Assembly (NCBI GenBank): GCA_036172245.1 | Contig: JAYWIR010000059.1 | Span: 620,001 to 684,000, forward strand | Length of the DNA stretch: 64,000 nucleotides | From: Raillietiella orientalis | Lineage: Eukaryota | Direction: 5' to 3' | Part shown: positions 1 through 59,557 of the stretch, piece after piece | Layout: each line of letters starts with the position of its first letter | Numbering within the stretch: position 1 is the first letter of the stretch | Notes under the pieces: model-generated | The model's input: only the letters and a program-made list of their open reading frames with translations | Told to the model about the DNA's origin: nothing | Database searches by the model: none | Program-made: the position numbers and the translations under genes

Positions 1-129
1 ATCCTCACAATTGAAGCTGGATAAATCCTCGCAGACCACAAGTCGAGAAAACCAAAAAAGAAGTCTATTGCTTCTGGTTTCCCCAGCTTGACTTCGATCT
101 GCCGCGTCCAACTTGCCACGTCGACCACT

Positions 130-1500: not shown

Positions 1501-1649
1501 CTCAAGGCGTGCGCACGGCGCGCGGCCAAAGGGCAAGCTGCGGAGGCGACCAGCTTTCCTGAGCGCTCTCAGGCAGCGAAACCGAATCGGGAGAGTCACC
1601 TGCCCACCCGGAATTTGGCAAGCGAAGCGCGCGCGCGAGGCAAGGGAGC

Positions 1650-2820: not shown

Positions 2821-2849
2821 GCGGATCGCAGGGCCTGGCGCAGCCAACC

Positions 2850-4850: not shown

Positions 4851-4949
4851 CCTCGGCGTGCGCTTGGCTGCAGCAAGACTTCCCCGAACGTTGGCGTCTC
4901 CTTCTAAGTTCGTTCTTCCACCAAAGATATCTTCTCAGCTGCATCTTCG

Positions 4950-6700
4950 GCTCGACCCTTCGTTCCTTGCTTTTCTCTTGGGTCGCCTTGCAATGGGAGC
5001 ACCCTTCTATCGGAAGAGCATTGCTTTCCTTCCGAAAGGAGGGGGACTTGGCTTGCACCCTTCTGGAGTTTTCGTCGGATTCTCCCGGAAGAGCGTTGCA
5101 CTGGCGGTCTGTGGCAGTCCTGGATTCAGCACTTCCCCGAACCTCCAAGAGTGCATCCTGGATGAGCGGTCCGACGAATGGGCGACGGGATGTGGCTCGT
5201 CCGTCCCGCATTGGTCTGTAGAATTTTCTAGAATGAATAAGCCGAGCACTTGCACAATTCAGTGGTGAGTCGCCTTGCTGTCCAGGATCGAGCGAAGATG
5301 CCTTTCCGCGCTGTCAGTCGAAAATCGGTCGGTTTCCTGGAAACGGCGTCCTCCCTCTGTTTTTCCAGGTCGCCGAAGATTCCGTTTGGGGCAGTTGGAG
5401 CGAAACGAACGCTTCCCGGTCTTGTGCATGCGGATTGACTGCGTGCATGGGTGATGATGGGAGCATCCCTTCTGCGACCTGCGCTTTCCGTAGGGACTGT
5501 TCTCTGGGTTGCGAGCATCGAATGGGGATGCCGTCTTGTGTGCCTGGATGTTGCTGAGCAATCATTACTCTTCCGAGTAGTTTCGAAGGGATGATGGAGG
5601 GGAACACGCTACTCGGAACAGATCAGCTCGTTGCGGCTACTTCTGGTCCGAATTTTCCCTTTCTCATCGATGCCTCCTCCACTCTCTTAAATTCCGAATG
5701 GCTGCCTTCCTGCACCCTCGGCGACTTGGGACTTGCGTAGAGAGGCAGTCCGACGTCGCTTCCAGGATGCTAGGAATGGGAGCCGAGTCCCGCCGTCTGG
5801 TGGACTGCCTTGAGCCGGTGGACTGCTCAGCGACAAAATGAAGGAAGGTTTTCCGTCTGGCCTTTTGACTCAAGTTGCATGTTCCGCGAGATGTTGCGAA
5901 TGATGAAACGATGGGATAAGGAAGCGATGGCAAAACGTTGTGGACCTACGTTGTGAGAATATGGATGTTTGGTCCAAACTTGTTGTTAAAATTGGAAAGA
6001 TGGGAGACCAAGAAATCTGCGGACGTTTGCGTATTTCCATGAACTGTGTCCAAAGGTCTGTTAGGTGGGAGATCATGCTTTCCGCGTCTGCATCGCAAAG
6101 CAAGAGAGAAATTCACCAGCGGCATCAAGTGACAATTTAAGTCGAGAATTGCGAATGTGACGTCAATTTTGAAAGAACAATGCTTGGGGAAAAAGTCCCT
6201 TCAACAATGATCGTGCGTGTGCAAAAATGGGTTAGATGGAAGGGAAACGCTATCCTGGATTGACTTAAAATTGCTTTGTGGAAACAGCAAGCATGCTGGC
6301 GTTAAAAAATCTATATTGGCGCACTTGTTACGTTCGAGGGACTAACAAGCAAAAGGGAAACCCAAAAATTCAATTTTGCTTGTTATTCCTGTAAATGAGA
6401 CGTTTGAACTGCGTTGTAACGAAGAGTGAATCTAGCGGTGACTGCCTGATACCTGACCCGCTGTTGTCCTGGAGACGAGTGCTAACACGTAATGCAGTCA
6501 TTTTGAAACGCGAAGGCATTTTCCCAGGGGAATCAGTTTTGTGGGCTCTACGTAGGTGTTCCTCAGCTGACGCAGCAACATGAGAACCACAAGCAAAGCT
6601 TCTGGAAGCATACTGGTGGTTGAAGCTGTTAAACAAACTGGGAACCCACACTTCGTCTTGTTGACAGCATAAGCTTGCTCTGCCGCGAAGAAAACCTTTG
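4950..6700 (+). pseudogene. Decayed PLS PPR gene relic
   Basis: GLHPSGVFVG, FSRMNKP, MPFRAVS, TLPGLVHA, FEGMMEGN, LVVKIGKMGDQEICGRLRISM....VRWEIMLSA (ORF 5940-6140), PDPLLSW..LKREGIFPGESVLWALRRCSS (ORF 6395-6583). Confidence 0.7.
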
Positions 6701-14100: not shown

Positions 14101-15010
14101 GCACTCAGCGAGTGGCCGTCCGGGACGTTATGCATTTTTTCGATCTTTGATGGGAAGAGGAGGAGCCGGATGTTCCTGCAGCGTGAATGTGCTGGACTTT
14201 CGGAGTCTCCCGCCCGAGTTGCACTCAAGGGAAAGCGTCTCCTCCGGCGAACCAAGCCATGCCAAAAAATGTGGCTGAGGGTCCCGCAAAGGTGGATGGA
14301 CGTTCTCGGAATTCCTCTCGAAAAATTTGAGGTCCCAGGGATTTCCGGTATGCGTGTCAACCCCTCGTCTTCGCCTGAAACACTATTCCATGTCCTGATT
14401 CAGCGGGGAAGCTGCCCAAAGAGCGCACCTACTGAGGCGCATTGGAGGTACTAGATCACTTCCTTCTGGAATGCAGGAGACTGTGCCAGGGATGAGAGTG
14501 CACCGCTGAGCTGTACTGCAGCACCACAGTGCGACCCCTGCGCACGTCCAGGAGGGTTTTCACTTCTCACTGGTTGCCTTACCGCTGGCGATCTTTCGCC
14601 ACATGTGCGCAGCGGTGGTGGTCAAAATGAAGGTGGAGTATGGCCGTCGTCGTACCAGAGAGCCACTACTCCCTCATCTCCAGCCTCACGAGGAAGGTAG
14701 ACAGAGGGATCAGTGTGGGATGTGAGGTCCAGAGGAAGCTTCGGATGATTTTGAGCAGGCTAGCCCGACACCGGTGAGTCCACCTATCATTTCTCCCATC
14801 CCTCCACTGACCAATGCAGGAACTCGGAAATCATGCTGTGTGACGCGCGGAACGATCAGCCTGATCCCTATTTACTTATTTATTGTCCCTCCATCGTCTT
14901 CCTTAGTTCTGTCCCCAGTGAGCACAGTTTCCTTGGGTGCAGGTCGGCACATGTCGGTCTCTGACTGCACTTCTTTTGATTTATTTATTTACTTTAAATA
15001 AATAACCTGG
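11200..15010 (+). mobile_element. Degenerate L1/Tx1-like LINE, near full extent with internal deletions
   Basis: Eroded ORF1 knuckle SARCVERSHPYVKS (~11615-11655); endonuclease QGFN (~GDFN, ~12710) and SIDLVITN (~12900); RT-thumb LSGQQRRTSLL; zinc finger EVLDHFLLEC (~14445-14475); T-rich tail, AATAAA at 14997-15002, then TAACCTGG. Confidence 0.65.
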
Positions 15011-15049
15011 CTATCCGAGACTAGAAGGCGTTTCTTTCCCGAGGACGAG

Positions 15050-16700
15050 AAACATGCAAAGTGGGAGGTCAGCCCTACGAGTGTCGGAGCTCGGGAGCAA
15101 AAAAATAAGGAAGATAGGGAAGGGAGAAGGGTCGCCGATTTAACCTGCCTATCTCTTCCTCAGGCTGCGCCTACCCTCACTCCTCGAGTTGGAGGTGAAG
15201 CCACTTTGACACGTCTCTCATCAAGGAGGAGGTAGAGCCTTCCGTCCATTCCCGGCTCCCGTCCTGCGCGCAGCGCAGGGGTCGCAAGGGGGGGCCCAGA
15301 CCTCCTTGAGACCGCGGCAACAGTCGGAAGTATTCCGCGCGTGGAACAGCAGGCCCTCCGGGATGGGGGCTTCTTCGCGATGAAGGCAGGACAACCGCTG
15401 CCTACGAGGGCGCCGCGATACAGAAGAGAGGAGATGGGAGCATTTCCGCCTCCCCGCACCTGTCGCAGCTCGGGAAGGAGCTGCCCTACCCCCTTGGTGC
15501 AGCAGCGTTGGCACCGTTTCTACCACGACTCCCAACGCACTAAAAACGAAGCCGCCTCCCCTTCCCTCTCGAGGGAGGGAAGACGCGAAGGTGGACCACA
15601 CAGAAGATCCGCCCCCCAGTGGAGCAAATCAGTAGTGTGGGCACTGGGGGACTCCGCGGCGGCCTGTAAAGATCTTTGGGGATTCGTACGCAACTCCGGC
15701 TATGAAGAACTCCCGCCCCGCCCACCGTTCCTCGCCCATAGGGAGATTTGAGAGGGTGCTTCTTCGAGTTCCGTCCCACGTCCCCCAGGAAGACTAGGTT
15801 GTGGACGGCTCGAACCAACATGGAACCGGTCGCGGTCATTAGATGTCCCACTGCCTCTGGTGGTCATGCATGGTAGCTCGCGAAGTGACAGAGGGCGCTT
15901 TTCCAGCAGGACGGAAATGGGGGGAAGTCGAGAGGCGTCACCCGGTCTAGACTGCGGGTCAGCGGTAACGCCGTTTCCCCGCAACCGACCACCTGCCTGT
16001 CTCCGAAGAACGTGGCATGCAGGAAGGCTCCAGTGGCGCATCTAGTCTTCGGCCATCTGAGGAAGCTGCAGCTTCATTTCCTTGTGCATCCAGACCACGA
16101 GAAGGCCATCTCGCGCATCATGCTGCACTGCATCCAGTCTCTCTACCCCTTCCAGCAAATACATAATGTTCCCGGGATTGAAGTCTGGTACATGCAGCAA
16201 GCCTCGATCTTCTCGCCGTCTGGAAAGCTGCGAGAAGAAAACAGGTTTTCTAGCTCAGAAGCGGTCCAGCACGGGATGGAACTTCGCCTCAGATCCGGAA
16301 CCGTTGTAAGTGCTTTCTCATTTGTGCACCAAGAGGGACGACTCCTCAGCCAAGAGCATGAGGAAAGCGACCGCTGTACCATGGAGCGCTGTAGGCGGAT
16401 CATTTCAGATCTGCATTTATCACTGTGATCGGACCAGGAGACGGGATGACGGAACGGAACGATAATTTTGGAACGTCTGCTGTCCCTCTGGGAAGGCAGC
16501 GGCGGCGTTGAACAGAGCAAAGAAAGGAAAAGAAGGCATCGTGAGGCAGCTCCGTGTCTGTCCTCCGGAGTCTGGGCTCATCTCACAAGCACCGATAGTG
16601 CCTGCTCCTTGGCATCCTCAAAATGGCAAAGCGGATTTAGGAACTCGGAATCCTTATGCTGACCACACAAAAACACCGATGACGTCCTAGAACATCGAAC
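15050..16700 (-). mobile_element. Degenerate LINE 3' portion (duplicated at ~57756-59406, +)
   Basis: Eroded RT-thumb and zinc-finger-like text (VLHSRSCVRI..PQCPH) and a pyrimidine-rich tail on the minus strand at ~15090-15130. Confidence 0.4.
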
Positions 16701-16719
16701 ACAGCAGGGACATTTACTG

Positions 16720-17200
16720 GACACACAGACTTGCTCATTCTATTTCTGGAAGGCTAGTGGAGCTTCCGTATCTCCTGCATCATGATCTTGAAGGAACCAG
16801 TACCGATATTCGCACCTGAGGGCTTCTCAGAGAACTGGACATCTACTTCTATCACGAAATTAGCTAACAAAACTGCGTGGGCTGTGATGGATTCTTCTCC
16901 TTTAGTTCATCCCCAAATTGTTCGAAACAAAATCCTGAGATGCAGTTTCGTCAGCATAACTTGATAGATAAGAATCTTGTGATTCCAATTCCTCTCGGAG
17001 TGTTCTTGATTTCAGAAAGACTGGTATCTTTCGTACCAAACGAAACTGTATCCATACCTGCGTCGTCCTTCTTTCCAGAGGAAAGGTATAGTTTTCAACT
17101 AGCAATAATCGCACCTCCCTTAAGTTCAGCGGCAGCAATATTGCCCGTGAGCAAGGTTAATCAGAGGAAAGGTAATCTTCACCAGGGCAGGATTTTATCC
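16720..17200 (-). pseudogene. PLS PPR relic carried inside the duplicated segment (copy at ~57256-57736, +)
   Basis: LLVENYTFPL (~+D.+TFP.+) and FEQFGDELKEKN..LIS (~FDE+.EK+++.W+++I+). Confidence 0.45.
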
Positions 17201-17214
17201 GCTGACACAGGAAC

Positions 17215-17800
17215 GTTGATTTTAAAAAATAAACAAGTCAGAGGGGAACAACAGTGCTCCCTCAATACAAGAGACGCGGCAAAAAAAAAGGTTAATTTGG
17301 GATAACTACCGGCACCTAGGCAGGCTTCCAAAAGGTAGGGAATGGAGAGTGGAGGAAATAAATAAATGAAAAAAAGACGGGAGGGTAAGGTTGCGCATGT
17401 TTCTTCCTTCCTAGAAGCGTTCATGTATGGTGGCGATCTCACTGATGAACTATTCAAGCAGATGGGGCAGCTGCCCTCATGAAGGCGGCTTCAATGCTGT
17501 GGCCTCCTTTCGCTGCAAACATGACTTCAGCACATGGCGAACTGTTAATATGGAACCGATGCAACATATGGTTGCGATCATAGCACTCTTGAAGCCCTCT
17601 GCGGCAATGGGAGATCCCGAGTCCGAGCAAAACACTTGTGGCTCCTCCTCGCGACGGAGGACTTGGACTGCTGACGTTGGGGGCACATGGAAGTTCAGTT
17701 GAACTTTCAAAAACTGGCCTTCGTGGCACAGAACTGGGCCAACCATTGGTGCGCCCCTGCACGTTTGCTCCCCCGGCTGGAGGTCGGTGGCGAAGGACTC
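17215..17800 (-). mobile_element. LINE 3' end relic (copy at ~56656-57241, +)
   Basis: Same terminal order as the other LINEs here: T-rich tract, GCCGGTAG, hairpin GAGGGAGCA-ctgt-TGTTCCCCTC, T-tract. Confidence 0.35.
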
Positions 17801-17849
17801 GCAACCCTGTTTGCGTGTCACCACCGCCGGCTCCCATCTTGAGGTTTCC

Positions 17850-18920
17850 CTCTCCGGTGTGTCACTGCTCTGGTGAGAGCGAACACGTGGATTCGCTGCC
17901 GTTCTGAAAATACTCCGGCCTGGAGGCAGGAGAAAGTGAGGACGTGGGTGCAGCTCACCCGAATCCCGCCAGAAGTTACCCTCTGCCGGAAGTTACCCGC
18001 TGGAGAGTTCCAGAAGAACAGCGGAAGAACAGTGGAGGAGGTGGGTAGTGAGCTGGCTACCCAGCTGGTCTACCCACCAGCCATCCCCTTCGTCCTCCAC
18101 TGTGGGAGTACATAGCACCTGCCTACCGGCGGAGTGGGAGGTTTCCTGCGAGATCTCGGCCCGCAGGAAGCCTATTGGTGGCTGGACTCCGCGTCAGCCA
18201 GCTGACGCGGCAACAGCAAGAACCGTCTCCAAAGCACTGGAACGTTGGGGCGAACTCTTCTCCATTCGACCTGAAGAGATGGAAGTGCCCCCTGTGTTTA
18301 TAGACAGGAAGCTGCTTCCCCTCAAGTGGCAGCAATCGGCGCTGCTGATACTGCACTGGGGTCTTCCGTGCAATGCGCGCCGGCACCACTGGACGAGGGG
18401 GAGCGCATCGCCGAACTGTGCCATTTGTGGGGAGAAGTAGACCTTCCCCTACATCAAAGTGCAGTGCGTCGCCCTCCAGGACTTGTGGGAACGTTTCTTC
18501 GCGTCCCTTCCTCACCCCGTGGACGATCCCAGAGACTCTTTGAGACCCCTCTTTGTGCGGGGCGCCATGACACTCGCAGCCGCACTCACAGCGCTGTTCC
18601 ACGTGCGCCGTGTCGTCGCGGCGAATTGCGCGGCCGAGGGAGGTCAGAGCGAGGGGGGCTGTCCTGCATGCCATCCGCTTCCTGCAGATAGCTTTCAGGT
18701 GGCCCCACCTGGAAAGGGAGAAGGAGCTCGCCAGCATCCTTCAACGGATGCAGAGGCCTCACCCACCACGAAATGTGATCCCTTTCCTTCTTCCCAAGTA
18801 GTTTTTGTTTTTTTTTAATTGTTTTTTGGGCTGTTTGTTATAATTTGCTTTCATTTTCTATTTTTGTTTCATCCCCTTCCCCTTCTTGGACGCGATGGAC
18901 TTCTCCGGCTCCCCCCTTTC
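17850..18920 (+). mobile_element. L1/Tx1-like LINE 3' portion with zf-RVT (copy at ~55536-56606, -)
   Basis: LLILHWGLPCNARRHHWTRGSASPNCAICGEK*TFPYIKVQCVALQDLWE at ~18340-18490; T-rich 3' UTR at 18800-18870. Confidence 0.8.
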
Positions 18921-18924
18921 TTTC

Positions 18925-20080
18925 TAGTGTAACAATGGGAATTGGTGGGCTATCGGCTCCATGGATTTCTGTAAGAGAATAAACGCGCCGGCGCACCCGG
19001 GTGTGAAACCACAGCACCCTTCTTCAGCTCTTCTTCGATGAAGAAGCGTTTCAGCAAGTCCAAAGCGGTATCCTGGGGTTGACGGAGCGCCGAAGCCAGT
19101 CGCACCCACATGTCCTCCAGGTCTCTACAGTCCAACAGGTGGAGGAAGGATTCCATCACCTCTCACCGGGGACATTCCAGTGAGGCAACTCATGCTGAAA
19201 ATCTATTGTACGTTGATTGCATGGAAATCCTCCCAGCCCAGAAACAGCAGTACGTCCTGTGATATCCAGCGGAGCGGGAAGACAGAGGTGTCCGTACACA
19301 GGGAAGGGACTACGAGTTCTTCGGGGACACACCCAGCAGATCGTTCCACCGAAATAGCCCTCTCGCTCGGGAACTGGAAGTGGCGCCGTCCATCAGCTCG
19401 CTCCTCTTGCAGCCATGAGGAGTTTCTCGACTCCTTCAATTTTTCAGAATTCCCATCCCGCCGATTGGATGCTGTCATTTGCCCTGAGTGCAGACAGTGC
19501 TGCGACAAGGGGTGTGACGGCTATCCGAGATCACTGTGTCCAATTCTGCAAGAGATCTTCCAGCAGTCTGCTTAGGAGATTCTGCAGCGGTCTCAGTTCC
19601 TCTGGGTGCACCTCCAAAGAGCAGCCCAGGACTCCAGAGCCTTCTGTCTGCGGATGTTCCAGGGACGGTAAGAGATCCATGTTGAGCTAGCAGTAGTGAG
19701 GACAGGTGCTTCAGGGAGTAGCCAAATCCGGCCCTCCGACGTAGGTTGCGCGGCTGTAGCGAAAGAAGTCCTGCCTCTCCAGCGCATTGCTGGAGGATGT
19801 GGCTTGCCGGAGCATGCCAAGGGGAAGACCACACTTTCCCACACAAGGACTGGAGTCGGAACTGCACCTGCAGTCGGATCTTCTGAAGGATCAGGATGCC
19901 CAAACCATCGTACTAGAGGGATAGGAATGTGCGCCCAAATCTTCAGTATCTCTTTTTAAACGGTTGCTGCCTGATGACCTTCACACCCATGAAGTTCAAC
20001 TGCCGAAAGAGACTGCCTCACGCATCAAGCGCTTGATCAGACTTTGAACAGCTGCAAGAGAGAGGACCTTAGTCTTCGGC
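18925..20080 (-). mobile_element. LINE 3' portion, second family
   Basis: ESFLHLLDCRDLEDMWVRLASAL..DLLKRFF (ORF 18950-19159) is the zf-RVT tail; homologous to 55280-55475. Confidence 0.65.
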
Positions 20081-38509: not shown

Positions 38510-41280
38510 TCCGGGTGGAAACCGGAGACAATTAGGGCAGGGGTTCCCTTCAGGGTTCCTTCCCAAGCGTAAGAGGAAAGGACTCCTTCATTGCTGTCTT
38601 TCGGAAGTTATCCGAGTGTCTGACGATGCCTGCGTCATGGTGAAGGTCAAACCTGTTCCTGAGGCTGGAGGGACTCCTACGTGGCATTGCTGCAGCTCGT
38701 GTAACCGAACATGAAGGAAGACAGTCTCTCTGTAAACTGCAAGTGACCGAGCATAGTCAACAAGTGGTTTCTAGAGGAAACGAAATTCAGCGGGCATTGT
38801 GATAAGACGGGGCACCTGGAGAGAATGTGTCCTGAAATTCAATGTTACCTCCGCGAGCAGTTAGGACACACGTAATTAAGGTGCCCAGAAGAGATTGGCC
38901 GAGTTTTTTTCAGGTGGAAATAACAAAACAACAACTACTACTACTACTACGCGTATGGAAAATCCAGAGGGAACCGGGAAACCGAATACCGGGAGGGGAG
39001 GGTTCCGGTAACCCGCAAAACCCGCGGATAGCGCTCGCGACTCCTCGGCTGAGGAAAACAGGATGAGTGCTGAGGATGCCGAGATGTCAGCTGGTGGCAA
39101 ACAAAAAGGTCTGCATGCCACCACGGCGAACAGCAGCGGCCACTGGAGAATTCTTTCGCCAAAGCCGGCGGGAGGCGGTCCACGGGAAGCCTCTGCGAAA
39201 CTCTCGGACCGAACTCTTCGGTTCGTTCCTGGTCATCGGGTTGCTGAACGGAGAAAACCCTCGCAGGCGCCTCCGCGACCTCGCAGGAAGTCGCAAGGGC
39301 GCTTCGCCGCTTCCGGGAGGTTTAGTCAGCCCCCTGATAGGCCCCCGGTAGTAGCAAGGAGCAGATGCAGCTTCCCAGCTTGAGTCATGGTCCCACAGCG
39401 CCGTTCGCACTCTGCCACGCGACTGACCTGCTCTCACAGGTGGTCGCCGAGGAAGACGTGACCGATGCCGTTTCCCGCCTGGGGCACCCGAACCAACAAG
39501 TTGCACCGCATCTTGAAGGCGCATATCCTCTCCAGACACGCTGATGTAAGCTTCCTCGCGAGGTAAGAGGTCGAGGTCCAGGTCTGGCGATCCGGGGACT
39601 CCTGCTTACCGGGCAACATAGGACAGCAGAGATCAGCCTCGGACGACGTACGCTGCCCCCTGAATCGGTTTCTGCTCCTCTCTTCATGAGAGGGAATCCG
39701 TGGAGAGCGACTATTCCCGGAAGCTGCTTCCGGAAACCACTCCTACGTGAGAGACACCTGTACTCAGCGACGCCTTTTCTCTGGAAACGATTCTCACCTC
39801 CAATGGGTAGCTCAAGAGGTGCTCAGCACGGAAGGTGGGAGGACTTTTTCCAGAGCTTCTCTGCAGAGCTGGTGAGCAGCCTCACCACTCTGACACAGAA
39901 GATGAAAGAGGAGTCGTGCTCTTTTCGTTCAGACGAAATACATTCCCCCTCTCCTCCCTCTCCCTCCCCTCCAAAGAAGGAGACTCGTAAAATCTTGTAA
40001 ACCTATGTCCCTTCACTTTGGAGGATGCAGAAGTTGTTGTAGGAACTGCAGGCTACGCTCCTCGGATGAGTGGCAGACTCTCTGGCGAGGGCGCCTGTAG
40101 CACACGAGTCACCGATTCGGAAACAGGGGCATGATTACAGGATGCAGGAGAGGAGCAACAGAGGACGCAAGGAAGGGTCCAGATACCAGATTCTCTTTAG
40201 GGTCTGACAGCCTCATCCGGAGCACAAACGCTTGCGCTCATCTTGTTCGAAGTGGTCACGCCGACCAGCTAGGCCGCCGTCCAATCGCCGAAAAGCTCAA
40301 ATGACCTTGAGTTGTGCATGTTTGCGACCGGCATGCTGGACACGCTCCAAGTTGAGCTTCCTGAATTTTGGCAGCAGGGCAGGAAACATCTCTGTGGAAA
40401 ACTCTTCTCTCTGCCTAATGGCCCAGACTCTTCCGTGAACGGTGATTTGAACAGGAAGTTCTTGTTCGTTGTCGTGCGTTCTGGTGCTTCCATATGAAAA
40501 AAGGTTCGCCGTCTCCATTTCCGGGAATGACTCTTCCAAGTGATGAAACCCCCGAAGGTCCCCAGCGGAAACCCATGGAACCACCATACTGCACGTGTTT
40601 GAAATTTGGCGCTTCCGCGAGCTCCTGTACGTCGAGTGAAGTCTGGGTTCAGGTGGAATTCAGGAAGAAGGGGAACCTACGACTGCGAGGATCACAGTGT
40701 TTGGACTGGTGGCCACCATTTTGGAGGATGATCGCCTCCGTTTGCCGCTGCTCCTCCAGAGTTGTTCCGAAAGGTGACGAAGAAAGGCAGAATCGTCTTT
40801 ACATGGGTTGACGAATTAAAGATGATGGCTTGGGAACGAAGGATAAAAGGAGAATCAAAAATTCAGGAACATGAAGCAAGGAGCTTATGGGTGTCACAGG
40901 ATGAGTTCTTCGTTCCCACCCCTTGCTCTGGAATTCCTGAATCTCTCCCTTGATGGTCTATTAACTGGATCCCACTGGAGATTAGTAGCAGCAGACGATC
41001 CGAGGAAACTCCCACATCGAAGTTCCTTAATCCGGTTCCCATGGGTCTTCCCATGCTCCGAAAGATCGATGTTCGGCGTTTTCTGTGAAAATGGCGCAAA
41101 AGCACTGAGGATGTGACAGCAAGATGTGGCCATCATTGGCAGCACAGAAGTTGCAAGGTGGCGTTTCTAGACAGACAGGGAGATGAGAACGCAAATGGAA
41201 TTCAGTAACCAATCGCTAAGTTGGAGAATGGTTACTTCCTGGAGCTTCCGGCTTTCCCGTTGCATCCCGACTACAGTTTC
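38510..41280 (+). mobile_element. Tx1-like LINE relic with multi-CCHC ORF1 and deleted ORF2
   Basis: Knuckles SGHCDKTGHLERMC (38789-38830) and CYLREQLGHT*LRC (38843-38884), plus an eroded third upstream; NGPDSSVNGDLNRKF (~PGPDG...EFY+.F), RLRGSQCL..PF, QKLQGGV. Confidence 0.7.
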
Positions 41281-41339
41281 ATCTCTTCACCTTCCCGTCA
41301 GACTGTAACCACCAGATCGATCTCCTACCGATGCTCCAC

Positions 41340-41600
41340 CGATAACGCTCATCGCTGGATTCCAAAAAGGATGCTTTTCAATCCATGGTAACTGCTCAAT
41401 GTAAGCATGGTTGCTTTTACGAAACGAAATAGACTTCCTGTCTTTGGACCTGCTGGGACTCTCTGTAGCAAATACAGAAATTGGTATATCTGATGAAAAT
41501 TTAATAGTGAATGGTGAGAAAAAAACGTGATAATTAGTCGAAATATAATAAGGCTCAACAAAAGGTACTATGGCTCTTTTCACAGGTCATTTAGCATCCA
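41340..41600 (-). pseudogene. PPR relic
   Basis: KDRKSISFRKSNHAYIEQ resembles ++R+++SW..++.AY+++G. Confidence 0.4.
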
Positions 41601-41822
41601 GTCAATATGGAGGAAGATGAAAATATCTAGAATTTAGGATTCTAGGGGGAAAAAGCGCATGGCACATGCAGCTAGTTTTAATCTTCAATAGCGTCATGGA
41701 GGTGGTCTTAAAAGATCAAAATTTACAAGGCAGCTTGCAAAATTTTGAGTCACAAGATCCAAACTAAAAACACTGAATCTTTCGTGATGAAAAATGAAGA
41801 GAAAAATTCATGGATAGGCGGC

Positions 41823-42733
41823 TAGAGGTTATCCAGAAACTAGTAAGTCTGGGCATGTTTCCTCCTGAACAAACGCTGCGCATAACAGTATTTGCGAAAG
41901 ATTCAGATGTAAGCAAATTATGCTCCTTCGATGACCTTCTGTTCCCACCGTTCCAGGCAAAAGTTCTTTCTGCAACCCATCTTCTTGGCTTGCTTGGTGC
42001 TTTTGACCCCTGTTCTCTCATTGGTATGAGCTCAAGACTTGGCGTCACCAAGACTGGTGACATTGGACCTTATCGTGTTCCGACCGACCAAATCAATTCA
42101 TCATCCGATATTCCATGCGCTCATCAACCATCCTCCCTCAGAGAGGACCGAATCGATCCTGTCTTCAAATGCCTCGGCGAACCATCTTGCACGTACGAAA
42201 TGTTGGGTGGCGGCTTGGATGAGAAGCCAAGGGTCAACTTATTGTGTTGTCTCGGTAAATTTGACATTGGCTGATAAAGTTTCCTCTCAACACAAAGTCA
42301 TGTTGTGGGATTCCGTGTTTCCCATCGTTATCGTGCGAGTGTCGGAATGAATTGTCTCGTTTGTTTTCCGCCTCCTTCCTCTGTTATGAGGATAATCATC
42401 AAATTTGTGAGGGTAGGCATTCCGGGTTTTGTCAAGGTCGACTGGACGATGTCTTCCGGGATCATTTGTAGCGCAAGTGGTTTAGAGGTTCTAGGGATTC
42501 ATCCTGTTCCCCGGGAGAAAAAGTCACCTACTTCTCTTGAGGACTGATGGAGCGATTGGTCCCAAAAAACTACCCTGAAGATTGCAATCGAAATACATCA
42601 CGATGAATCAGGACGCTGGGGCTCTTTTCGAAAATTTCACGATCAGTTTCCGACTTCCACAGAGTTGACGGTTTTTGCTGCTTGCACGTTGGCACGCTCC
42701 AATGAAAACTATTGAGTTTCCAAACATCGAATA
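41823..42733 (-). mobile_element. Decayed bacterial-type IS5-family (IS1031-like) insertion sequence with transposase pseudogene
   Basis: PRRWVAERTFAWNGGNRRSSKEH (core RRWVAERTFAW at 41953-41985) matches the IS5 C-terminal RWVVERTFAW...RRL.KDYE signature. Upstream collinear eroded motifs: SETDRE, SREV, MIPED..ST, SDTRTI, VK-x7-VD(T)LGLL, PNIS..DG, LIW....GP. Length ~0.9 kb; candidate imperfect IRs at 41823-41841 and 42715-42733. Confidence 0.8.
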
Positions 42734-42879
42734 AAGTCTTCCTCTCCATCACTTTGCCTGCATGATCCGTTCTTCGTTTTCTATCCCTTCGTTCGTGGCA
42801 GCCAAGAAGAACAGCCTACATCTAAATTGCGGTCGCAGTGAACGAAAATCTTCTCTCAAACAGCGCTCATGAAGCACTA

Positions 42880-43830
42880 CAATGAAATTTACATTTGACA
42901 CGCTAGATGCATCTTCTCTCTTCATGTGTTTTCTGTCTTCATTTCCCCTTCTTGAATGTTATTCTGGTCACGTTGCTGTGTACTCCATTAATAACACCAA
43001 ACAGCACATAGAAATCAGCGAGAACCGAAACCTACTAGAAGGAACCTGGACAAGAATATTTCCACATCCCAGCAAGAGGTAGCCAATCCGATTTCCTTTT
43101 CCTGCTCAGCATTGCCAAAGAGAGGGGATTTGCCGAATTCTTGTTTAAGTCTATACCAAAAAAAAAATCGTCCATCGTGATCCGGCCGAAAATGATTCCA
43201 ACGCGGAGTGAGTTTCACGTGTGGAGCACCAAATTCGGCTGATGGACAGCTTACTTGACCTTTAACTGCCCCATCTGCGAGAAAAAGAGATCGCTTTCGA
43301 TGTCAGGGATGCAAATCTGTGACCAATTCGATGACTCTTGACAATGGCACAATCTGTTGTCTGTCAAGAAGGCGTTACTGGATCAAAAATGCATCTTCTT
43401 TGCCAAAAAAAAAATCTTAAATTTTACTCGGAATGCCTCTTTCTAAAAGAAGCTGCTGCCAAGGAAAATCGGAAATCACCGCGATCCAAGAAGTGGCATG
43501 ACCCACAGATCTCGAATAGAGCCGAAGTGAATGGGAAGGTACTGCTCCTGTTATAGAGATAATGTACCTGGATTTCAAGTTCCGAATTTTATTTACCTCG
43601 AGCAAAATGGACCGGTGAAGAGTCGATTTAAATCAACAAAGACGTGCAGATTTCGGGAAATGAGGAGCGGAGACCCCAATTGGGAAGAATTGGGGAGAAT
43701 ACAAACGAAGGAACTTTGAGAAAAATCGCAAGCGCAAGAATGAATGATCCGAATCGACCTAGTAAATCCAAGTTGTTAATGTCAAATTTTGATGATTTAA
43801 CAAAAAAAAAATCATCCGAACCGTGAGAAA
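42880..43830 (+). pseudogene. PLS PPR relic
   Basis: LLECYS, ENRNLLEGTW, NLKFYSECLFLKEA (~L+.+Y++CG.+++A), KWHDPQISNRAEVNG, PGFQVPN, NEGTLRKIASA. Confidence 0.5.
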
Positions 43831-44159
43831 TTATGCCGAAAATGCTGATTCTGAATCCCTGAGCCCAGTCTTCTTGTAATAAAAACTGGATGACAAGAAT
43901 TGAGTTGTTGAAATGGATTGGTTTCCTTTTTTCTATCCCTCCACTACAAAAAAGGAAAAATATACACTTTTATTAGGAGGCTTTTGCCTTGGATTATCCA
44001 ACATCAGAAAAAGTGGATTGCGACGGTTCCTGTAATTAAAGGACACCTAAAATACGTACTCGCAATAAATAGTAACAAAAGTACAACATGACCGAGCAAA
44101 ATTATTTCCAAAGATCATTCAGTCGGTTTACTGAAATTCATCTGAAATTACTGAAAACT

Positions 44160-44850
44160 TGATAATCACACATCCATAGGGCTCGCGGTCAATGTGAAGA
44201 TCTGATTCGGGACCGGCTTTTCGGATGGTTGCTGTGGAGTAAGCAGACGAAGCGCCCCTTTAGCCGAGCAAATCATTTTCCTTGTGAATACGGGTGGATT
44301 AAACCTTTTCAGACGGAGAAACTTTTTTGTTGATTGCTCGATCCCTGCACGTTGATTTCTGCCTTTTTTGATCCTTTCAGCGCTTACAAAGTCCCCGAGA
44401 AACACTGCAGGAGTTATCCGGTCGTTCAATCTGGCACGAATGTTGCCAATAAGACATGCACACATTCTTCCACCGAACCGGAAGTGAGTTCCCTGTGATG
44501 TGTGGCAATCTCCAGACAGCCAGTGACTCCGTAGATCGACTGGTTCCAGGAGTGATTTCGTGGAGTGAACGCGTTGCAAACTTTCCCCGGAGAAAAAGTC
44601 ATGAAATTTCTATTGAAAAGTTCGAAAGGAAATTCCACTTACTAATTCCATCTTCTCGAAAAAGAAAAAAAAAAAAAAGGTTGATCGGAAGCGGAGACAG
44701 TCCGTGAGAATTTCCGCCAAATGATGCTGCAATGAAATGATGATCGTCCCCGATCACACCATGATAGCTGTTTTCTCGACACCGCCAACCAGCACGAATA
44801 CTCCGATTGTATGATGCAGTTTCTTTCTTTCGAAACATCTTTGTCATTCA
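44160..44850 (-). pseudogene. PLS PPR relic
   Basis: KMFRKKETASYNRSIRAG, AGIEQSTKKFLRLKRFNPPVFT, GALRLL...PVPNQIFTLTA. Confidence 0.55.
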
Positions 44851-44939
44851 TCCTAAATGGATGTGAAATGTTCCACCCACCGAGTGTCTCCTTTTTCCTT
44901 AAGAACCGGCTGAGATGGGTGCTTACGGTTCAGCTGTTT

Positions 44940-45990
44940 GCAAAAAGCTGAGTTGTCGATGCTAATGAATATCAGAAATCACAGATCAGCATCGATCCAA
45001 TCGGCGCCGTACCTGAACGCATCAGAAAGCGTACCCTTAGAACACATCTACTCTCACCTACTCCCTGACGACCGCTGGTCGGCCCGCAAACACAAGAGAT
45101 ATCTGGGAACTTCCGTTGCTTTCTTGAGCTTTCCTGAAAATATCCCGGGAAGCTCGTATATTAGTGAGTATAGTCTGAGTGCAAGTGCAGTGTGTACTCG
45201 AGAGTATTCGTAAAGTAACAAGTGTTAATTGAAATCATCACACTCTGGGCAAGTGGCGGTGATAAATCCAGCATCTCTGCTGGTGACTCGAGATTCATCC
45301 TCCGTTTCCGTTTCCTTCCATGGACTTGAGGCGTGTTTTCTCTGTCATCCGCTTACTTCAGATTATAAATTATATCTGCGTTGCTTCCTCTGAAGCCATC
45401 GTGTCCTGATGCTGCTGCACATGCCACGCTCGTGGAGTGACATTCAGCATTCTTGAAGTTCCTCCCAACGTATCAGCATTCGATGCGTGTGTCTTCTTGG
45501 CTTTCTTGTTTGTTTGTTTGTTTTTGCTGAGGATTTCCGCAAAGAAATATACAAAACACAGCTGAAGCAGTAAGCAGACGGTATGCTCCTCCTGAAGAGA
45601 AAAGAAGCACAGGGGGAGATGAAAATTCACTGGCCAATTCATCAAACTCTTTGCTTCCATCTGAGATGTTAAATCTCAGTGCTGAAGGTATTTAAGAAAA
45701 CTGATTATATCTGCTCCTTAAGAGAATTCTTGCTGCTCAAGTGGCGCTGTCAGCCTCAAGGAATTCAGATTTTTCTTAGAGGAATGCAAAGAATCGAGTC
45801 GGTGTTCGAGCAAGTAGTGGGTCACTTGCGGGGAAGATGGAGAACTCTGTCGAGGGAAGAGCGACTAGATTTCCCTCTTATTTTCTCGACTAAATTTCGT
45901 ACCAAAAACAAAAATGTGATCTTAAGTGTCATAATAAGCTTACACCTGAAAATAGGTTGTCCAAGATCACGAGTAAACAATTAATGGTGC
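44940..45990 (+). pseudogene. PLS PPR relic
   Basis: GSSYISEYS, VPPNVSAF, SVLKV...LLLKW, GMQRIESVFEQV-x7-W (F-to-W spacing of 11, as in PPR S motifs), KNKNVILSVIISLHLKIG. Confidence 0.5.
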
Positions 45991-55504: not shown

Positions 55505-58500
55505 AGCCCACCAATTCCCATTGTTACACTAGAAAGAAAGGGGGGAGCCGGAGAAGTCCATCGCGTCCAAGAAGGGGGAGGGGATGAAACAAAAATAGAA
55601 AATGAAAGCAAATTATAACAAACAGCCCAAAAAACAATTAAAAAAAAACAAAAACTACTTGGGAAGAAGGAAAGGGATCACATTTCGTGGTGGGTGAGGC
55701 CTCTGCATCCGTTGAAGGATGCTGGCGAGCTCCTTCTCCCTTTCCAGGTGGGGCCACCTGAAAGCTATCTGCAGGAAGCGGATGGCATGCAGGACAGCCC
55801 CCCTCGCTCTGACCTCCCTCGGCCGCGCAATTCGCCGCGACGACACGGCGCACGTGGAACAGCGCTGTGAGTGCGGCTGCGAGTGTCATGGCGCCCCGCA
55901 CAAAGAGGGGTCTCAAAGAGTCTCTGGGATCGTCCACGGGGTGAGGAAGGGACGCGAAGAAACGTTCCCACAAGTCCTGGAGGGCGACGCACTGCACTTT
56001 GATGTAGGGGAAGGTCTACTTCTCCCCACAAATGGCACAGTTCGGCGATGCGCTCCCCCTCGTCCAGTGGTGCCGGCGCGCATTGCACGGAAGACCCCAG
56101 TGCAGTATCAGCAGCGCCGATTGCTGCCACTTGAGGGGAAGCAGCTTCCTGTCTATAAACACAGGGGGCACTTCCATCTCTTCAGGTCGAATGGAGAAGA
56201 GTTCGCCCCAACGTTCCAGTGCTTTGGAGACGGTTCTTGCTGTTGCCGCGTCAGCTGGCTGACGCGGAGTCCAGCCACCAATAGGCTTCCTGCGGGCCGA
56301 GATCTCGCAGGAAACCTCCCACTCCGCCGGTAGGCAGGTGCTATGTACTCCCACAGTGGAGGACGAAGGGGATGGCTGGTGGGTAGACCAGCTGGGTAGC
56401 CAGCTCACTACCCACCTCCTCCACTGTTCTTCCGCTGTTCTTCTGGAACTCTCCAGCGGGTAACTTCCGGCAGAGGGTAACTTCTGGCGGGATTCGGGTG
56501 AGCTGCACCCACGTCCTCACTTTCTCCTGCCTCCAGGCCGGAGTATTTTCAGAACGGCAGCGAATCCACGTGTTCGCTCTCACCAGAGCAGTGACACACC
56601 GGAGAGGGAAACCTCAAGATGGGAGCCGGCGGTGGTGACACGCAAACAGGGTTGCGAGTCCTTCGCCACCGACCTCCAGCCGGGGGAGCAAACGTGCAGG
56701 GGCGCACCAATGGTTGGCCCAGTTCTGTGCCACGAAGGCCAGTTTTTGAAAGTTCAACTGAACTTCCATGTGCCCCCAACGTCAGCAGTCCAAGTCCTCC
56801 GTCGCGAGGAGGAGCCACAAGTGTTTTGCTCGGACTCGGGATCTCCCATTGCCGCAGAGGGCTTCAAGAGTGCTATGATCGCAACCATATGTTGCATCGG
56901 TTCCATATTAACAGTTCGCCATGTGCTGAAGTCATGTTTGCAGCGAAAGGAGGCCACAGCATTGAAGCCGCCTTCATGAGGGCAGCTGCCCCATCTGCTT
57001 GAATAGTTCATCAGTGAGATCGCCACCATACATGAACGCTTCTAGGAAGGAAGAAACATGCGCAACCTTACCCTCCCGTCTTTTTTTCATTTATTTATTT
57101 CCTCCACTCTCCATTCCCTACCTTTTGGAAGCCTGCCTAGGTGCCGGTAGTTATCCCAAATTAACCTTTTTTTTTGCCGCGTCTCTTGTATTGAGGGAGC
57201 ACTGTTGTTCCCCTCTGACTTGTTTATTTTTTAAAATCAACGTTCCTGTGTCAGCGGATAAAATCCTGCCCTGGTGAAGATTACCTTTCCTCTGATTAAC
57301 CTTGCTCACGGGCAATATTGCTGCCGCTGAACTTAAGGGAGGTGCGATTATTGCTAGTTGAAAACTATACCTTTCCTCTGGAAAGAAGGACGACGCAGGT
57401 ATGGATACAGTTTCGTTTGGTACGAAAGATACCAGTCTTTCTGAAATCAAGAACACTCCGAGAGGAATTGGAATCACAAGATTCTTATCTATCAAGTTAT
57501 GCTGACGAAACTGCATCTCAGGATTTTGTTTCGAACAATTTGGGGATGAACTAAAGGAGAAGAATCCATCACAGCCCACGCAGTTTTGTTAGCTAATTTC
57601 GTGATAGAAGTAGATGTCCAGTTCTCTGAGAAGCCCTCAGGTGCGAATATCGGTACTGGTTCCTTCAAGATCATGATGCAGGAGATACGGAAGCTCCACT
57701 AGCCTTCCAGAAATAGAATGAGCAAGTCTGTGTGTCCAGTAAATGTCCCTGCTGTGTTCGATGTTCTAGGACGTCATCGGTGTTTTTGTGTGGTCAGCAT
57801 AAGGATTCCGAGTTCCTAAATCCGCTTTGCCATTTTGAGGATGCCAAGGAGCAGGCACTATCGGTGCTTGTGAGATGAGCCCAGACTCCGGAGGACAGAC
57901 ACGGAGCTGCCTCACGATGCCTTCTTTTCCTTTCTTTGCTCTGTTCAACGCCGCCGCTGCCTTCCCAGAGGGACAGCAGACGTTCCAAAATTATCGTTCC
58001 GTTCCGTCATCCCGTCTCCTGGTCCGATCACAGTGATAAATGCAGATCTGAAATGATCCGCCTACAGCGCTCCATGGTACAGCGGTCGCTTTCCTCATGC
58101 TCTTGGCTGAGGAGTCGTCCCTCTTGGTGCACAAATGAGAAAGCACTTACAACGGTTCCGGATCTGAGGCGAAGTTCCATCCCGTGCTGGACCGCTTCTG
58201 AGCTAGAAAACCTGTTTTCTTCTCGCAGCTTTCCAGACGGCGAGAAGATCGAGGCTTGCTGCATGTACCAGACTTCAATCCCGGGAACATTATGTATTTG
58301 CTGGAAGGGGTAGAGAGACTGGATGCAGTGCAGCATGATGCGCGAGATGGCCTTCTCGTGGTCTGGATGCACAAGGAAATGAAGCTGCAGCTTCCTCAGA
58401 TGGCCGAAGACTAGATGCGCCACTGGAGCCTTCCTGCATGCCACGTTCTTCGGAGACAGGCAGGTGGTCGGTTGCGGGGAAACGGCGTTACCGCTGACCC

Positions 58501-59557
58501 GCAGTCTAGACCGGGTGACGCCTCTCGACTTCCCCCCATTTCCGTCCTGCTGGAAAAGCGCCCTCTGTCACTTCGCGAGCTACCATGCATGACCACCAGA
58601 GGCAGTGGGACATCTAATGACCGCGACCGGTTCCATGTTGGTTCGAGCCGTCCACAACCTAGTCTTCCTGGGGGACGTGGGACGGAACTCGAAGAAGCAC
58701 CCTCTCAAATCTCCCTATGGGCGAGGAACGGTGGGCGGGGCGGGAGTTCTTCATAGCCGGAGTTGCGTACGAATCCCCAAAGATCTTTACAGGCCGCCGC
58801 GGAGTCCCCCAGTGCCCACACTACTGATTTGCTCCACTGGGGGGCGGATCTTCTGTGTGGTCCACCTTCGCGTCTTCCCTCCCTCGAGAGGGAAGGGGAG
58901 GCGGCTTCGTTTTTAGTGCGTTGGGAGTCGTGGTAGAAACGGTGCCAACGCTGCTGCACCAAGGGGGTAGGGCAGCTCCTTCCCGAGCTGCGACAGGTGC
59001 GGGGAGGCGGAAATGCTCCCATCTCCTCTCTTCTGTATCGCGGCGCCCTCGTAGGCAGCGGTTGTCCTGCCTTCATCGCGAAGAAGCCCCCATCCCGGAG
59101 GGCCTGCTGTTCCACGCGCGGAATACTTCCGACTGTTGCCGCGGTCTCAAGGAGGTCTGGGCCCCCCCTTGCGACCCCTGCGCTGCGCGCAGGACGGGAG
59201 CCGGGAATGGACGGAAGGCTCTACCTCCTCCTTGATGAGAGACGTGTCAAAGTGGCTTCACCTCCAACTCGAGGAGTGAGGGTAGGCGCAGCCTGAGGAA
59301 GAGATAGGCAGGTTAAATCGGCGACCCTTCTCCCTTCCCTATCTTCCTTATTTTTTTGCTCCCGAGCTCCGACACTCGTAGGGCTGACCTCCCACTTTGC
59401 ATGTTTCTCGTCCTCGGGAAAGAAACGCCTTCTAGTCTCGGATAGCCAGGTTATTTATTTAAAGTAAATAAATAAATCAAAAGAAGTGCAGTCAGAGACC
59501 GACATGTGCCGACCTGCACCCAAGGAAACTGTTCTCACTGGGGACAGAACTAAGGAA
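55505..59557 (-). repeat. Right copy of the 4053-bp inverted duplication
   Basis: Reverse complement of 14899-18951. Confidence 0.98.

Follow-up and report, generated by a model that had tools for sequence, protein, structure and literature searches.

The segment at about 41412-42034 of the window (the whole 64-kb stretch of DNA analysed here) is very probably a small piece of endosymbiont DNA, from a Wolbachia-like member of the Rickettsiales, that entered the nuclear genome long ago, and neither a transposed insertion sequence (IS) nor part of a resident eukaryotic lineage. The insert is now without function. One of its two recognizable pieces is the end of an IS5-family element; since this end lies about 195 bp from a similarly diverged, frameshifted and Wolbachia-like hsp20 fragment, the segment is best read as a transferred piece of an endosymbiont chromosome. 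The element has lost its 5' three-quarters, and with them the left inverted repeat, the DNA-binding domain and the first two of the catalytic acidic residues, which argues against transposition of the IS. The features are listed in Table 1.

Table 1. Features of the insert and of the stretch adjoining it (window coordinates).
Feature	Position	Strand	Basis
hsp20 / alpha-crystallin family (small heat-shock protein) pseudogene fragment	41412..41628	+	frameshift-aware alignment, blastn, tblastx
Spacer of 194 nt, hsp20 fragment to IS end	41629..41822	.	inside AT-richer block
Right terminal inverted repeat of IS	41823..41847 (last element base ~41825)	-	repeat match, 72% alignment
IS5-family transposase remnant, C-terminal ~60 codons and short 3' untranslated end of IS	41848..42034	-	nhmmer, blastn, tblastn
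5' three-quarters of the IS as drawn in the first-pass annotation	42035..42733	.	no detectable relation to IS or Rickettsiales genomes; treated as host/unassigned DNA

The starting point was a motif on the minus strand, KPRRWVAERTFAWNGGNRRSSKEH, located within a stop-to-stop frame of 101 aa at 41764-42069. The RRWV.ERTFAW..NRR.SKE part of it falls in the transposase remnant. When the 101-aa frame was compared with plasmids by tblastn, 1001 records were matched, the best (E 7e-4) being annotated as IS5 family transposase. A phmmer search of 1.84 billion proteins gave 23 matches at E<=1e-3, and the best of these (E 5.8e-8, 65% identity across 48 residues) is identical in C-terminal sequence to the frame of the IS in one Rickettsiales genome, G267. 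In addition, the transposase of a Wolbachia strain matches the window frame at 30 of 57 residues (tblastn, E 1e-10). A protein profile built from nine full-length transposases found, among 3127 six-frame fragments of the window, the frame 41767-42069 as its sole match (E 7e-10; next best 1.4). At the DNA level, a profile of nine Rickettsiales IS copies matches 42030-41820 with profile positions 718-929 of 955 (nhmmer, E 8e-24), and the IS end aligns with the IS of G267 at 159 of 221 positions, through the inverted repeat (blastn, 72% identity, E 2e-26). The latter alignment contains several indels. Weak IS similarity may extend to about 42065. The DNA profile detected no second IS copy within the 64-kb window.

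The bacterial relatives are IS5-family elements of 915-932 bp (DUF4096 and DDE_Tnp_1/_1_2, NF033580); one locus, L002 from Picosynechococcus, was left out of the comparisons because its annotated CDS has internal stops. Judged by sequence similarity, the C-terminal DDE-domain motif (..RRWVVERTFAW..RRL.K[DE]Y..) is homologous to that of IS5-family members, and the remnant appears to derive from a bacterial element of the DUF4096 plus DDE_Tnp_1/_1_2 type, not from Harbinger-like transposons. Two proposals of the first-pass annotation are thus borne out: the minus-strand motif is real and beyond chance by tblastn, phmmer and the DNA profile, and it is a bacterial IS5 signature rather than one of PIF/Harbinger, the best relatives being bacterial IS copies at the DNA level. 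Curated family models do not recover the remnant: NCBIfam NF033580 reaches E 0.0039 and 16.8 bits, far under its cut-off of 110. The Pfam check that the annotation had called for gave no transposase family at E<=10 on 11 stop-to-stop pieces of 41767-42815, where only two unrelated DUF matches appeared. A search for longer homologous proteins of the 101-aa frame yielded 34 candidates, none at E<=0.01.

The right end of the element is well preserved. At 41825-41847, 20 of 23 positions are identical to the repeat of the Wolbachia IS, as counted from the aligned sequences, and the right repeat matches the left repeat of one bacterial copy, L005, over 24 nt at 92% in the opposite orientation. This site is the top repeat-like site of the whole window, with a score of 18 (next best 12). 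The low-coordinate boundary originally placed at 41823 is therefore essentially correct. A search for inverted repeats around the locus returned only short AT-rich pairs of the chance type.

The IS is 5'-truncated, and only its last ~212-240 bp (~23%), at about 42034-41823, are present with one inverted repeat. The first-pass annotation had described a whole fossil IS of ~910 bp and ~270 codons, in which eroded versions of SDLTD.EW, MLP.DFPPWST, DSQSVK, VKGRKRH and LIW.DG.Y.G preceded the C-terminal motif; upstream of 42035, however, alignment, protein profile, DNA profile and inverted-repeat scan all failed to tell these strings from noise. When the N-terminal parts (208-214 residues) of three real transposases were aligned with 42040-43000 allowing for frameshifts, the scores were 35, 35 and 39, against control means of 38.4, 38.5 and 37.7, and controls scored as high in 92/140, 94/140 and 44/126 cases, respectively. 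The N-terminal DUF4096 DNA-binding region gave no signal above controls, nor did the DSQSVK and ADxGY regions with the first two of the catalytic acidic residues, and positions 1-717 of the IS DNA profile found no match in the window. The candidate left inverted repeat at ~42728 scores 8, which is equalled by 496 of 12,792 window segments (3.9%). Comparison of 42035-43400 with 301 genomes of the order gave one marginal match of 40 nt. The string 'LIWSVGTR*G' at ~42101-42072 was considered as the second catalytic region and rejected, as it has 2/10 identities and would require a deletion of ~25 codons.

These negative results are informative, because the 5' part was detected in 60 of 60 simulated full-length copies decayed alike (28% substitutions and indels), yet no 5' signal is seen in the window. 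The bacterial IS copies are also evenly conserved: six of the eight rows compared show 55-84% identity to L005 in each 100-nt bin, and the outer bins fall to 15-41% only for L007 and L015, whose rows had been cut by fixed coordinates.

The query for the second piece of the insert was the 151-aa Hsp20 of a Wolbachia strain, which itself belongs to Pfam HSP20 (E 6.5e-25); the fragment represents residues 51-126 of this protein. Within these 76 codons there are at least five frameshifts and one in-frame stop. Frameshift-aware alignment scored 136-144, while 194 controls had a mean of 34.2 (sd 4.9, max 49). By blastn, 41476-41628 matches the Wolbachia hsp20 gene at 73% over 159 nt (E 6e-18), and tblastx gave two collinear HSPs. 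A C-terminal extension of the fragment (an FNSVMEVVLK-like string at ~41681-41719) would need an insertion of ~45 nt for about two identities, and was dismissed as chance. The hsp20 fragment and the IS end, on opposite strands, are convergent, and the two are similarly diverged. The spacer between them could represent the decayed 3' end of hsp20 together with bacterial intergenic DNA; it did not significantly match the surroundings of hsp20 at any of five bacterial loci. The IS piece retains a 101-codon open frame, whereas the hsp20 piece is full of frameshifts, a difference that we take as chance.

Nucleotide similarity to an endosymbiont genome is thus found at two unrelated loci, hsp20 (73%) and the IS end (72%). 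In the identity matrix, the IS piece of the window is 75% identical to copies in two genomes of the order sample, 67% and 65% identical to those of two named Wolbachia strains, and 62%, 60% and 58% identical to the Tisiphia, Rickettsia and Holospora copies, respectively. For hsp20, the proteins of two named Wolbachia strains align with z = 21 and z = 10.9, and a Tisiphia Hsp20 with only z = 2.5. The window hsp20 is 70% identical to that of one named Wolbachia strain, and those of two named strains are 68% identical to each other. Comparison with these two strains, and the one negative comparison with Tisiphia, suggest that the donor was Wolbachia-like. Such a donor would point to an arthropod or nematode as the host. 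The bacterial IS relatives may belong to the ISWpi1 group. Passages of PMC2515875 and PMC3205602 describe ISWpi1 as an IS5-family group of Wolbachia, and the latter source names IS903, IS1031 and ISWpi1 among the IS5-family groups found there.

The bacterial similarity is confined to ~620 bp. When the 64 kb were compared with a 1.6-Mb Wolbachia contig by tblastx and blastn, only the IS end and the hsp20 piece matched. A core of 661 nt was matched by 12 of the 301 genomes of the order, and the flanks by 1/301 (marginally) and 0/301. The GC content of 41412-42034 is 0.392, as against 0.494 and 0.454 in the flanks; CpG o/e varies from 0.74 to 1.13 and is uninformative as to the host. The surroundings may well be host DNA: the flanks have no Rickettsiales similarity, and the window contains two U4 snRNA matches, which point to a eukaryotic context (a U4 match is without a good Sm site and offers no clue to the taxon). 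Pfam scans covered 80 of the 157 window ORFs that reach 110 aa (picked by hand, taking the longest where sets overlap), 131 of the 153 pieces within 39826-45691 that reach 30 aa, and 85 of the 104 AT-richer pieces that reach 70 aa (the 19 scanned before were omitted); all three gave only sub-threshold chance matches. Across these 80, 131 and 85 ORF pieces, no plant or other gene or transposable element (TE) domain was found, and the window contains no tRNA genes and no runs of telomere-type repeats. It does contain a perfect inverted repeat of 4,053 nt.

By analogy with what is established for endosymbiont-to-host transfers, bacterial DNA freed in a germ-line cell may have been joined into a chromosome break. 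The proximity and similar divergence of the two pieces suggest that both arrived in one event. Neutral decay would then have brought substitutions, frameshifts and a stop into the insert, its base composition drifting partly toward that of the host. Pseudogenisation and compositional drift are visible in the hsp20 frameshifts and stop, in the indels of the IS piece and in the GC content of the segment. The earlier view of an old, decayed horizontal acquisition, and not a fresh contamination, is upheld by the frameshifts, the stop and a divergence of 25-30%.

Several other explanations were considered. A complete (~910 bp), eroded element of the IS5/IS1031 type, which transposed into or was acquired alone by a eukaryotic (plant) genome, would fit the span of 41823-42733 (911 bp), near the 915-917 bp of bacterial relatives, and the exact right end; strings like the N-terminal motifs can also be picked by eye, in three frames. 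However, the 5' 700 bp never rose above background in any test, the left-repeat candidate is a common one in the window (3.9% of segments), and an equally decayed full-length copy would have been detectable, as all 60 simulated ones were. In addition, this explanation leaves the adjoining Wolbachia-like hsp20 fragment unaccounted for. It is very unlikely, and the arrival as an IS insertion that had been proposed most likely did not take place, given a fragment of similar divergence so close by. The first-pass annotation had also suggested an undescribed, plant-resident IS5 lineage; in a wider form, the remnant would be one dead copy from a eukaryote-resident group of IS5-related transposons akin to PIF/Harbinger or ISL2EU. 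Relatives of IS5 do exist among eukaryotic superfamilies, as is stated in part of PMC3673617, but a nucleotide identity of 72-75% to Wolbachia-type IS, including the inverted repeat, is far above superfamily kinship. Moreover, the best protein matches are of the bacterial IS type, no second copy occurs within 64 kb and a bacterial hsp20 fragment adjoins, so that a resident lineage is most likely not the source and this origin is extremely unlikely.

Misjoining of reads from a living endosymbiont into a host contig also deserves attention, since a section of PMC3673617 describes endosymbiont DNA as a common contaminant of host assemblies, and the long perfect inverted repeat could hint at assembly trouble. 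A live bacterium, however, would be expected to leave intact genes and longer stretches, whereas the pieces here make up just 620 bp amid 64 kb, and even the closest of the 301 sampled genomes is 25-30% different; hsp20 has at least five frameshifts and a stop, and the IS several indels. The GC content of the pieces is intermediate between typical Wolbachia values (~34%, as given in an abstract) and the flanks. Contamination or an assembly chimera is accordingly highly improbable. The donor might instead have been another, unsampled intracellular alphaproteobacterium (a relative of Anaplasmataceae, Rickettsiaceae or Holosporales), or the two pieces might be separate neighbouring insertions. 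The same type of IS is also present in Rickettsia, Tisiphia and Holospora and in some further Rickettsiaceae, and the window hsp20 is about as close to one named Wolbachia strain as two named strains are to each other. Meanwhile, IS and hsp20 adjoin in no bacterial genome checked: the IS lies beside hsp20 at none of five bacterial hsp20 loci, and on the named Wolbachia contig the two are more than 150 kb apart. Against this, of the sequences compared, those of Wolbachia type come closest to both pieces, and the Tisiphia Hsp20 hardly aligns; such a donor, or two insertions, is unlikely. That the host is a plant, as the first-pass annotation had it, or another lineage without known Wolbachia, the insert being a fossil of a past intimate association or of vector-mediated transfer, is quite improbable. 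In a plant host, DNA from a Wolbachia-like donor would be unexpected.

The insert of endosymbiont DNA favoured here resembles the nuclear inserts of Wolbachia in arthropods and nematodes, which are likewise short, pseudogenised bacterial pieces in eukaryotic DNA with an IS passenger beside an ordinary gene. Accounts in parts of two sources describe a butterfly chromosome with an ISWpi4 copy between Wolbachia sequence (PMC10083226) and endosymbiont-to-host transfers with embedded IS elements (PMC3673617). Unlike the known Wolbachia inserts, the present one is detectable over only ~620 bp and is far more diverged, at 70-75% identity to the nearest genomes compared. With the Rickettsiales IS5-family elements (915-932 bp) it shares the C-terminal motif, the 3' end and the terminal inverted repeat at the DNA level; unlike an intact element, the window copy consists of the last ~23%, lacks the left end and is immobile. 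The IS5-like element of Adineta vaga (Gladyshev & Arkhipova 2009, as cited in a passage of PMC3673617) is a further bacterial IS5-family sequence in an animal genome, single-copy and silent. The citing text presents it as a TE similar to IS5, whereas the window holds a truncated passenger beside a bacterial gene. PIF/Harbinger and ISL2EU go back to a remote ancestor shared with the IS5 family, as part of PMC3673617 states, but the window copy is 72-75% identical to bacterial copies, including the bacterial inverted repeat, in a direct comparison set that was bacterial. A passage of the same review (Gilbert & Cordaux 2013) sets such cases apart, not counting them as horizontal transfer of TEs per se.

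Decayed Wolbachia-type scraps, sometimes with IS passengers, are well documented from the genomes of invertebrates; the one described here is a tiny and dead example of this class. Annotators should not call its 101-codon open frame a gene. When a bacterial transposase motif is met in eukaryotic DNA, adjoining bacterial genes should be looked for before a horizontal transfer of an IS is claimed. The finding has little importance at present, and would gain much only if the host were a plant or another lineage without known Wolbachia association. The insert would record that the host lineage was once infected by a Wolbachia-like bacterium.

A 101-codon frame, open from stop to stop on the minus strand of the window, includes SLELIPMREQGSKAPSKPRRWVAERTFAWNGGNRRSSKEHNLLTSESFANTVMRSV, the motif on which the first-pass annotation had based a fossil IS5 insertion sequence. 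A tblastn search with this frame against 72,556 plasmid records (a 7.3-Gb database) matched 1001 records (best E 7e-4), in which the matched features are annotated as IS5 family transposase. Among 1.84 billion representative proteins, phmmer gave 23 matches at E<=1e-3, the top one (P0001) showing 65% identity over 48 residues (E 5.8e-8); it shares with another match, P0004, the unusual stretch ..RFWVHKDTPPEL.P..E.GFKVQP.RWVVERTFAW.. Judged by these matches, the motif is not a chance string. Across 41767-42815, none of the 11 pieces between stops has a Pfam transposase at E<=10, and the NCBIfam model NF033580 (IS5 family) scores the fragment at 16.8 bits, where the cut-off is 110. The curated models are thus blind to the fragment, and the case for IS5 homology rests on direct comparisons. 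The sense frame reads on past the former stop codon and across the inverted repeat. On the opposite strand, a 158-codon open frame without a Pfam match crosses the IS remnant and extends past it; it is probably a chance frame that annotation might mistake for a gene.

When P0004 was searched against prokaryote genomes, one per species, 38 loci were obtained, the closest of which belong to an uncultured Rickettsiaceae bacterium, two Wolbachia strains, a Rickettsia sp., a Tisiphia endosymbiont and Holospora, all intracellular Rickettsiales or Holosporales. These relatives are DUF4096 + DDE_Tnp_1/DDE_Tnp_1_2 proteins that match NF033580, and the element at L005 and L006 (IS copies of one named Wolbachia strain) is 917 bp long with clear terminal inverted repeats. 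The literature describes ISWpi1 as a Wolbachia group of the IS5 family in which two reading frames overlap (PMC2515875, PMC3205602), and the present copies may belong to it. Among 301 genomes of the order, one (G267) supplied a closer relative still, identical at 159 of 221 positions (72%, E 2e-26) to window 42034-41823, and the C-terminal sequence of its reading frame is the same as that of P0001. Identity of the IS piece reaches 75% with the two best genomes and 65-67% with the two named Wolbachia strains, and falls to 58-62% for the copies in Tisiphia, Rickettsia and Holospora. The bacterial IS5 origin first proposed holds, the closest relatives being Rickettsiales/Holosporales IS copies. 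Several bacterial copies of the same IS are themselves broken (L005; L014-L016); L005 has an in-frame stop ahead of the KGRKRH region (locus position about 2016-2018), and the C-termini of the wCori copy and of one Rickettsiales MAG copy are frameshifted, in agreement with the many non-functional IS copies noted in Wolbachia (PMC3205602).

L005 aligned with the window by blastn at 41990-41824 (69% over 174 nt, E 3e-13), and a further match, in inverted orientation, places its left inverted repeat on 41823-41846. The match of window GAGGTTATCCAGAAACTAGTAAG to GAGGTTGTCCGGAAACTAGTAAA of the Wolbachia element shows that the right inverted repeat is preserved and puts the end of the element at 41825, two bases off the boundary of 41823 originally given, which can stand. 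In an inverted-repeat scan this right end scores 18, and the next best site in the window 12. T-N-A-like trinucleotides flank the Rickettsiales copies (L005, L006, L008, L009, L011) beside their GAG(G/C)TTGTCCG... ends, and CTA adjoins the preserved end in the window, which would fit the short duplications of the target site that go with this type of IS. When the whole window was scanned by nhmmer, all filters off, with a profile of nine Rickettsiales IS copies, the single hit was 42030-41820 (E 8e-24; profile positions 718-929 of 955). The portion present is the last ~212 bp, or possibly ~240 bp with a weak VTP/ELIP similarity that reaches 42065 included, instead of the full-length element (41823-42733) previously annotated.

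For the DNA upstream of the motif, our own protein-versus-DNA local aligner, which allows frameshifts, was run with the N-terminal 208-214 residues of transposases from Bradyrhizobium, Isosphaeraceae and Wolbachia, with same-length pieces from the rest of the window, both strands, as controls. The scores were 35, 35 and 39 against control means of 38.4, 38.5 and 37.7, with 92/140, 94/140 and 44/126 controls scoring equal or higher, and looser or stricter frameshift penalties left the outcome unchanged. A protein profile of nine full-length transposases retrieved only the frame 41767-42069 (E 7e-10) from all 3127 six-frame fragments of the window, the second-best fragment lying elsewhere (E 1.4). 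Nothing in the window matched DNA profile positions 1-717 (nhmmer), and the left inverted repeat was not found: its expected site (~42728) scores 8, which 496 of 12,792 segments equal or exceed. By these four approaches, none of the eroded upstream motifs reported earlier rises above controls. In six of the eight bacterial rows, identity to L005 is 55-84% in every 100-nt bin; the other two rows, with outer bins of 15-41%, were cut by fixed coordinates, perhaps off the element limits. Conservation of the IS thus shows no drop towards its 5' part. In a power simulation (60 replicates), a full-length copy from outside the profile was decayed by 28% substitutions and the observed indel density, and nhmmer still matched profile positions <600 in all 60 (median first position 16.5). 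Taken together, the missing 5' signal, the bin conservation and the simulation show that the element is truncated.

When the whole window was compared by tblastx with a 1.6-Mb contig of the named Wolbachia strain, all eight HSPs at E<=0.01 fell in 41438-41991. Besides the IS, two collinear HSPs match a 151-aa Wolbachia ORF, a Pfam HSP20 protein (E 6.5e-25). The corresponding window fragment contains at least five frameshifts and one stop, and its alignments score 136-144 against a control mean of 34.2 (sd 4.9, maximum 49, n=194). Alignment with the Hsp20 of a second named Wolbachia gave z = 10.9, and with that of Tisiphia only z = 2.5. In DNA, 41476-41628 and the Wolbachia gene share 73% identity over 159 nt (E 6e-18). 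Such identity would not be expected of a plant or animal small heat-shock gene; the piece is a bacterial pseudogene fragment. It is oriented towards the IS end across a gap of 194 nt. Its identity to four bacterial hsp20 genes is 62-70%, compared with 66-87% among those four genes. In none of the five bacterial hsp20 loci checked does the IS lie beside hsp20.

Coordinates of features in the window
Feature	Position	Strand	Evidence or remark
U4 snRNA match	16989-17158	-	57.1 bits vs gathering score 46
U4 snRNA match	57298-57467	+	57.1 bits vs gathering score 46
Inverted repeat, first arm	14899-18951		4,053 nt
Inverted repeat, second arm	55505-59557		4,053 nt
hsp20 fragment	41412-41628	+	frameshift-aware alignment to Hsp20 residues 51-126
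101-codon frame	41764-42069	-	stop to stop
158-codon frame	41798-42274	+	antisense to IS remnant

No further similarity to the Wolbachia contig was detected by blastn and relaxed tblastx of 38-47 kb or by blastn of the whole window. The 661-nt core has matches in 12 of the 301 genomes of the order, 42035-43400 a marginal 40-nt match in one, and 40000-41420 none. GC content falls to 0.392 in 41412-42034 from 0.494 and 0.454 in the adjoining 1-kb stretches, which fits AT-rich endosymbiont DNA partly drifted towards host composition. The IS and hsp20 pieces are about equally diverged from their bacterial relatives, which is compatible with one event and does not prove it.

The window is eukaryotic in character. 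The region holding the bacterial insert is bracketed by an inverted repeat whose arms, 36.5 kb apart, are 100% complementary and carry one U4 snRNA match each; identity as complete as this suggests that the duplication is very recent, or else gene conversion or an artefact of assembly. In both U4 matches the 3' stem-loop carries an insertion of 49 nt and the Sm site is poor (AAAUCAAGAAC vs consensus AAUUUUUGG); they may be variant genes or pseudogenes. No tRNA was found in the window, and no Pfam domain in 80 + 131 + 85 of its ORF pieces. Positions 1-5500 form a GC-rich block (GC 0.63, CpG o/e 1.13) with long overlapping open frames on both strands, which lack Pfam domains and look like a by-product of composition; the remainder is a mosaic of GC 0.40-0.57. 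Nothing shows the host to be a plant, as had been assumed.

The best-supported reading is that a small piece of Wolbachia-like DNA entered the nuclear genome long ago and brought the IS end along as a passenger. Insertion of the IS itself into the host, as first envisaged, is not upheld: without its left end and most of its transposase, the element cannot have transposed in its present form. An undescribed IS5 lineage resident in the host, the other option raised at that stage, is likewise not supported. Frameshifts, a stop, indels and a divergence of 25-30% make fresh contamination unlikely. The idea of an old acquisition, put forward at the outset, holds.

A Wolbachia-like insert carrying an IS belongs to a known kind: Gilbert & Cordaux (PMC3673617) distinguish bacterial TEs inside larger endosymbiont-derived fragments from TE horizontal transfer per se, and Miao et al. 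(PMC10083226) describe an IS flanked by Wolbachia sequence on a butterfly chromosome. Published descriptions place Wolbachia as an endosymbiont in arthropods and nematodes, and a host from one of these groups is the more likely. If the host were really a plant, the Wolbachia-like insert would be far more interesting, provided that insect contamination of the assembly is excluded.
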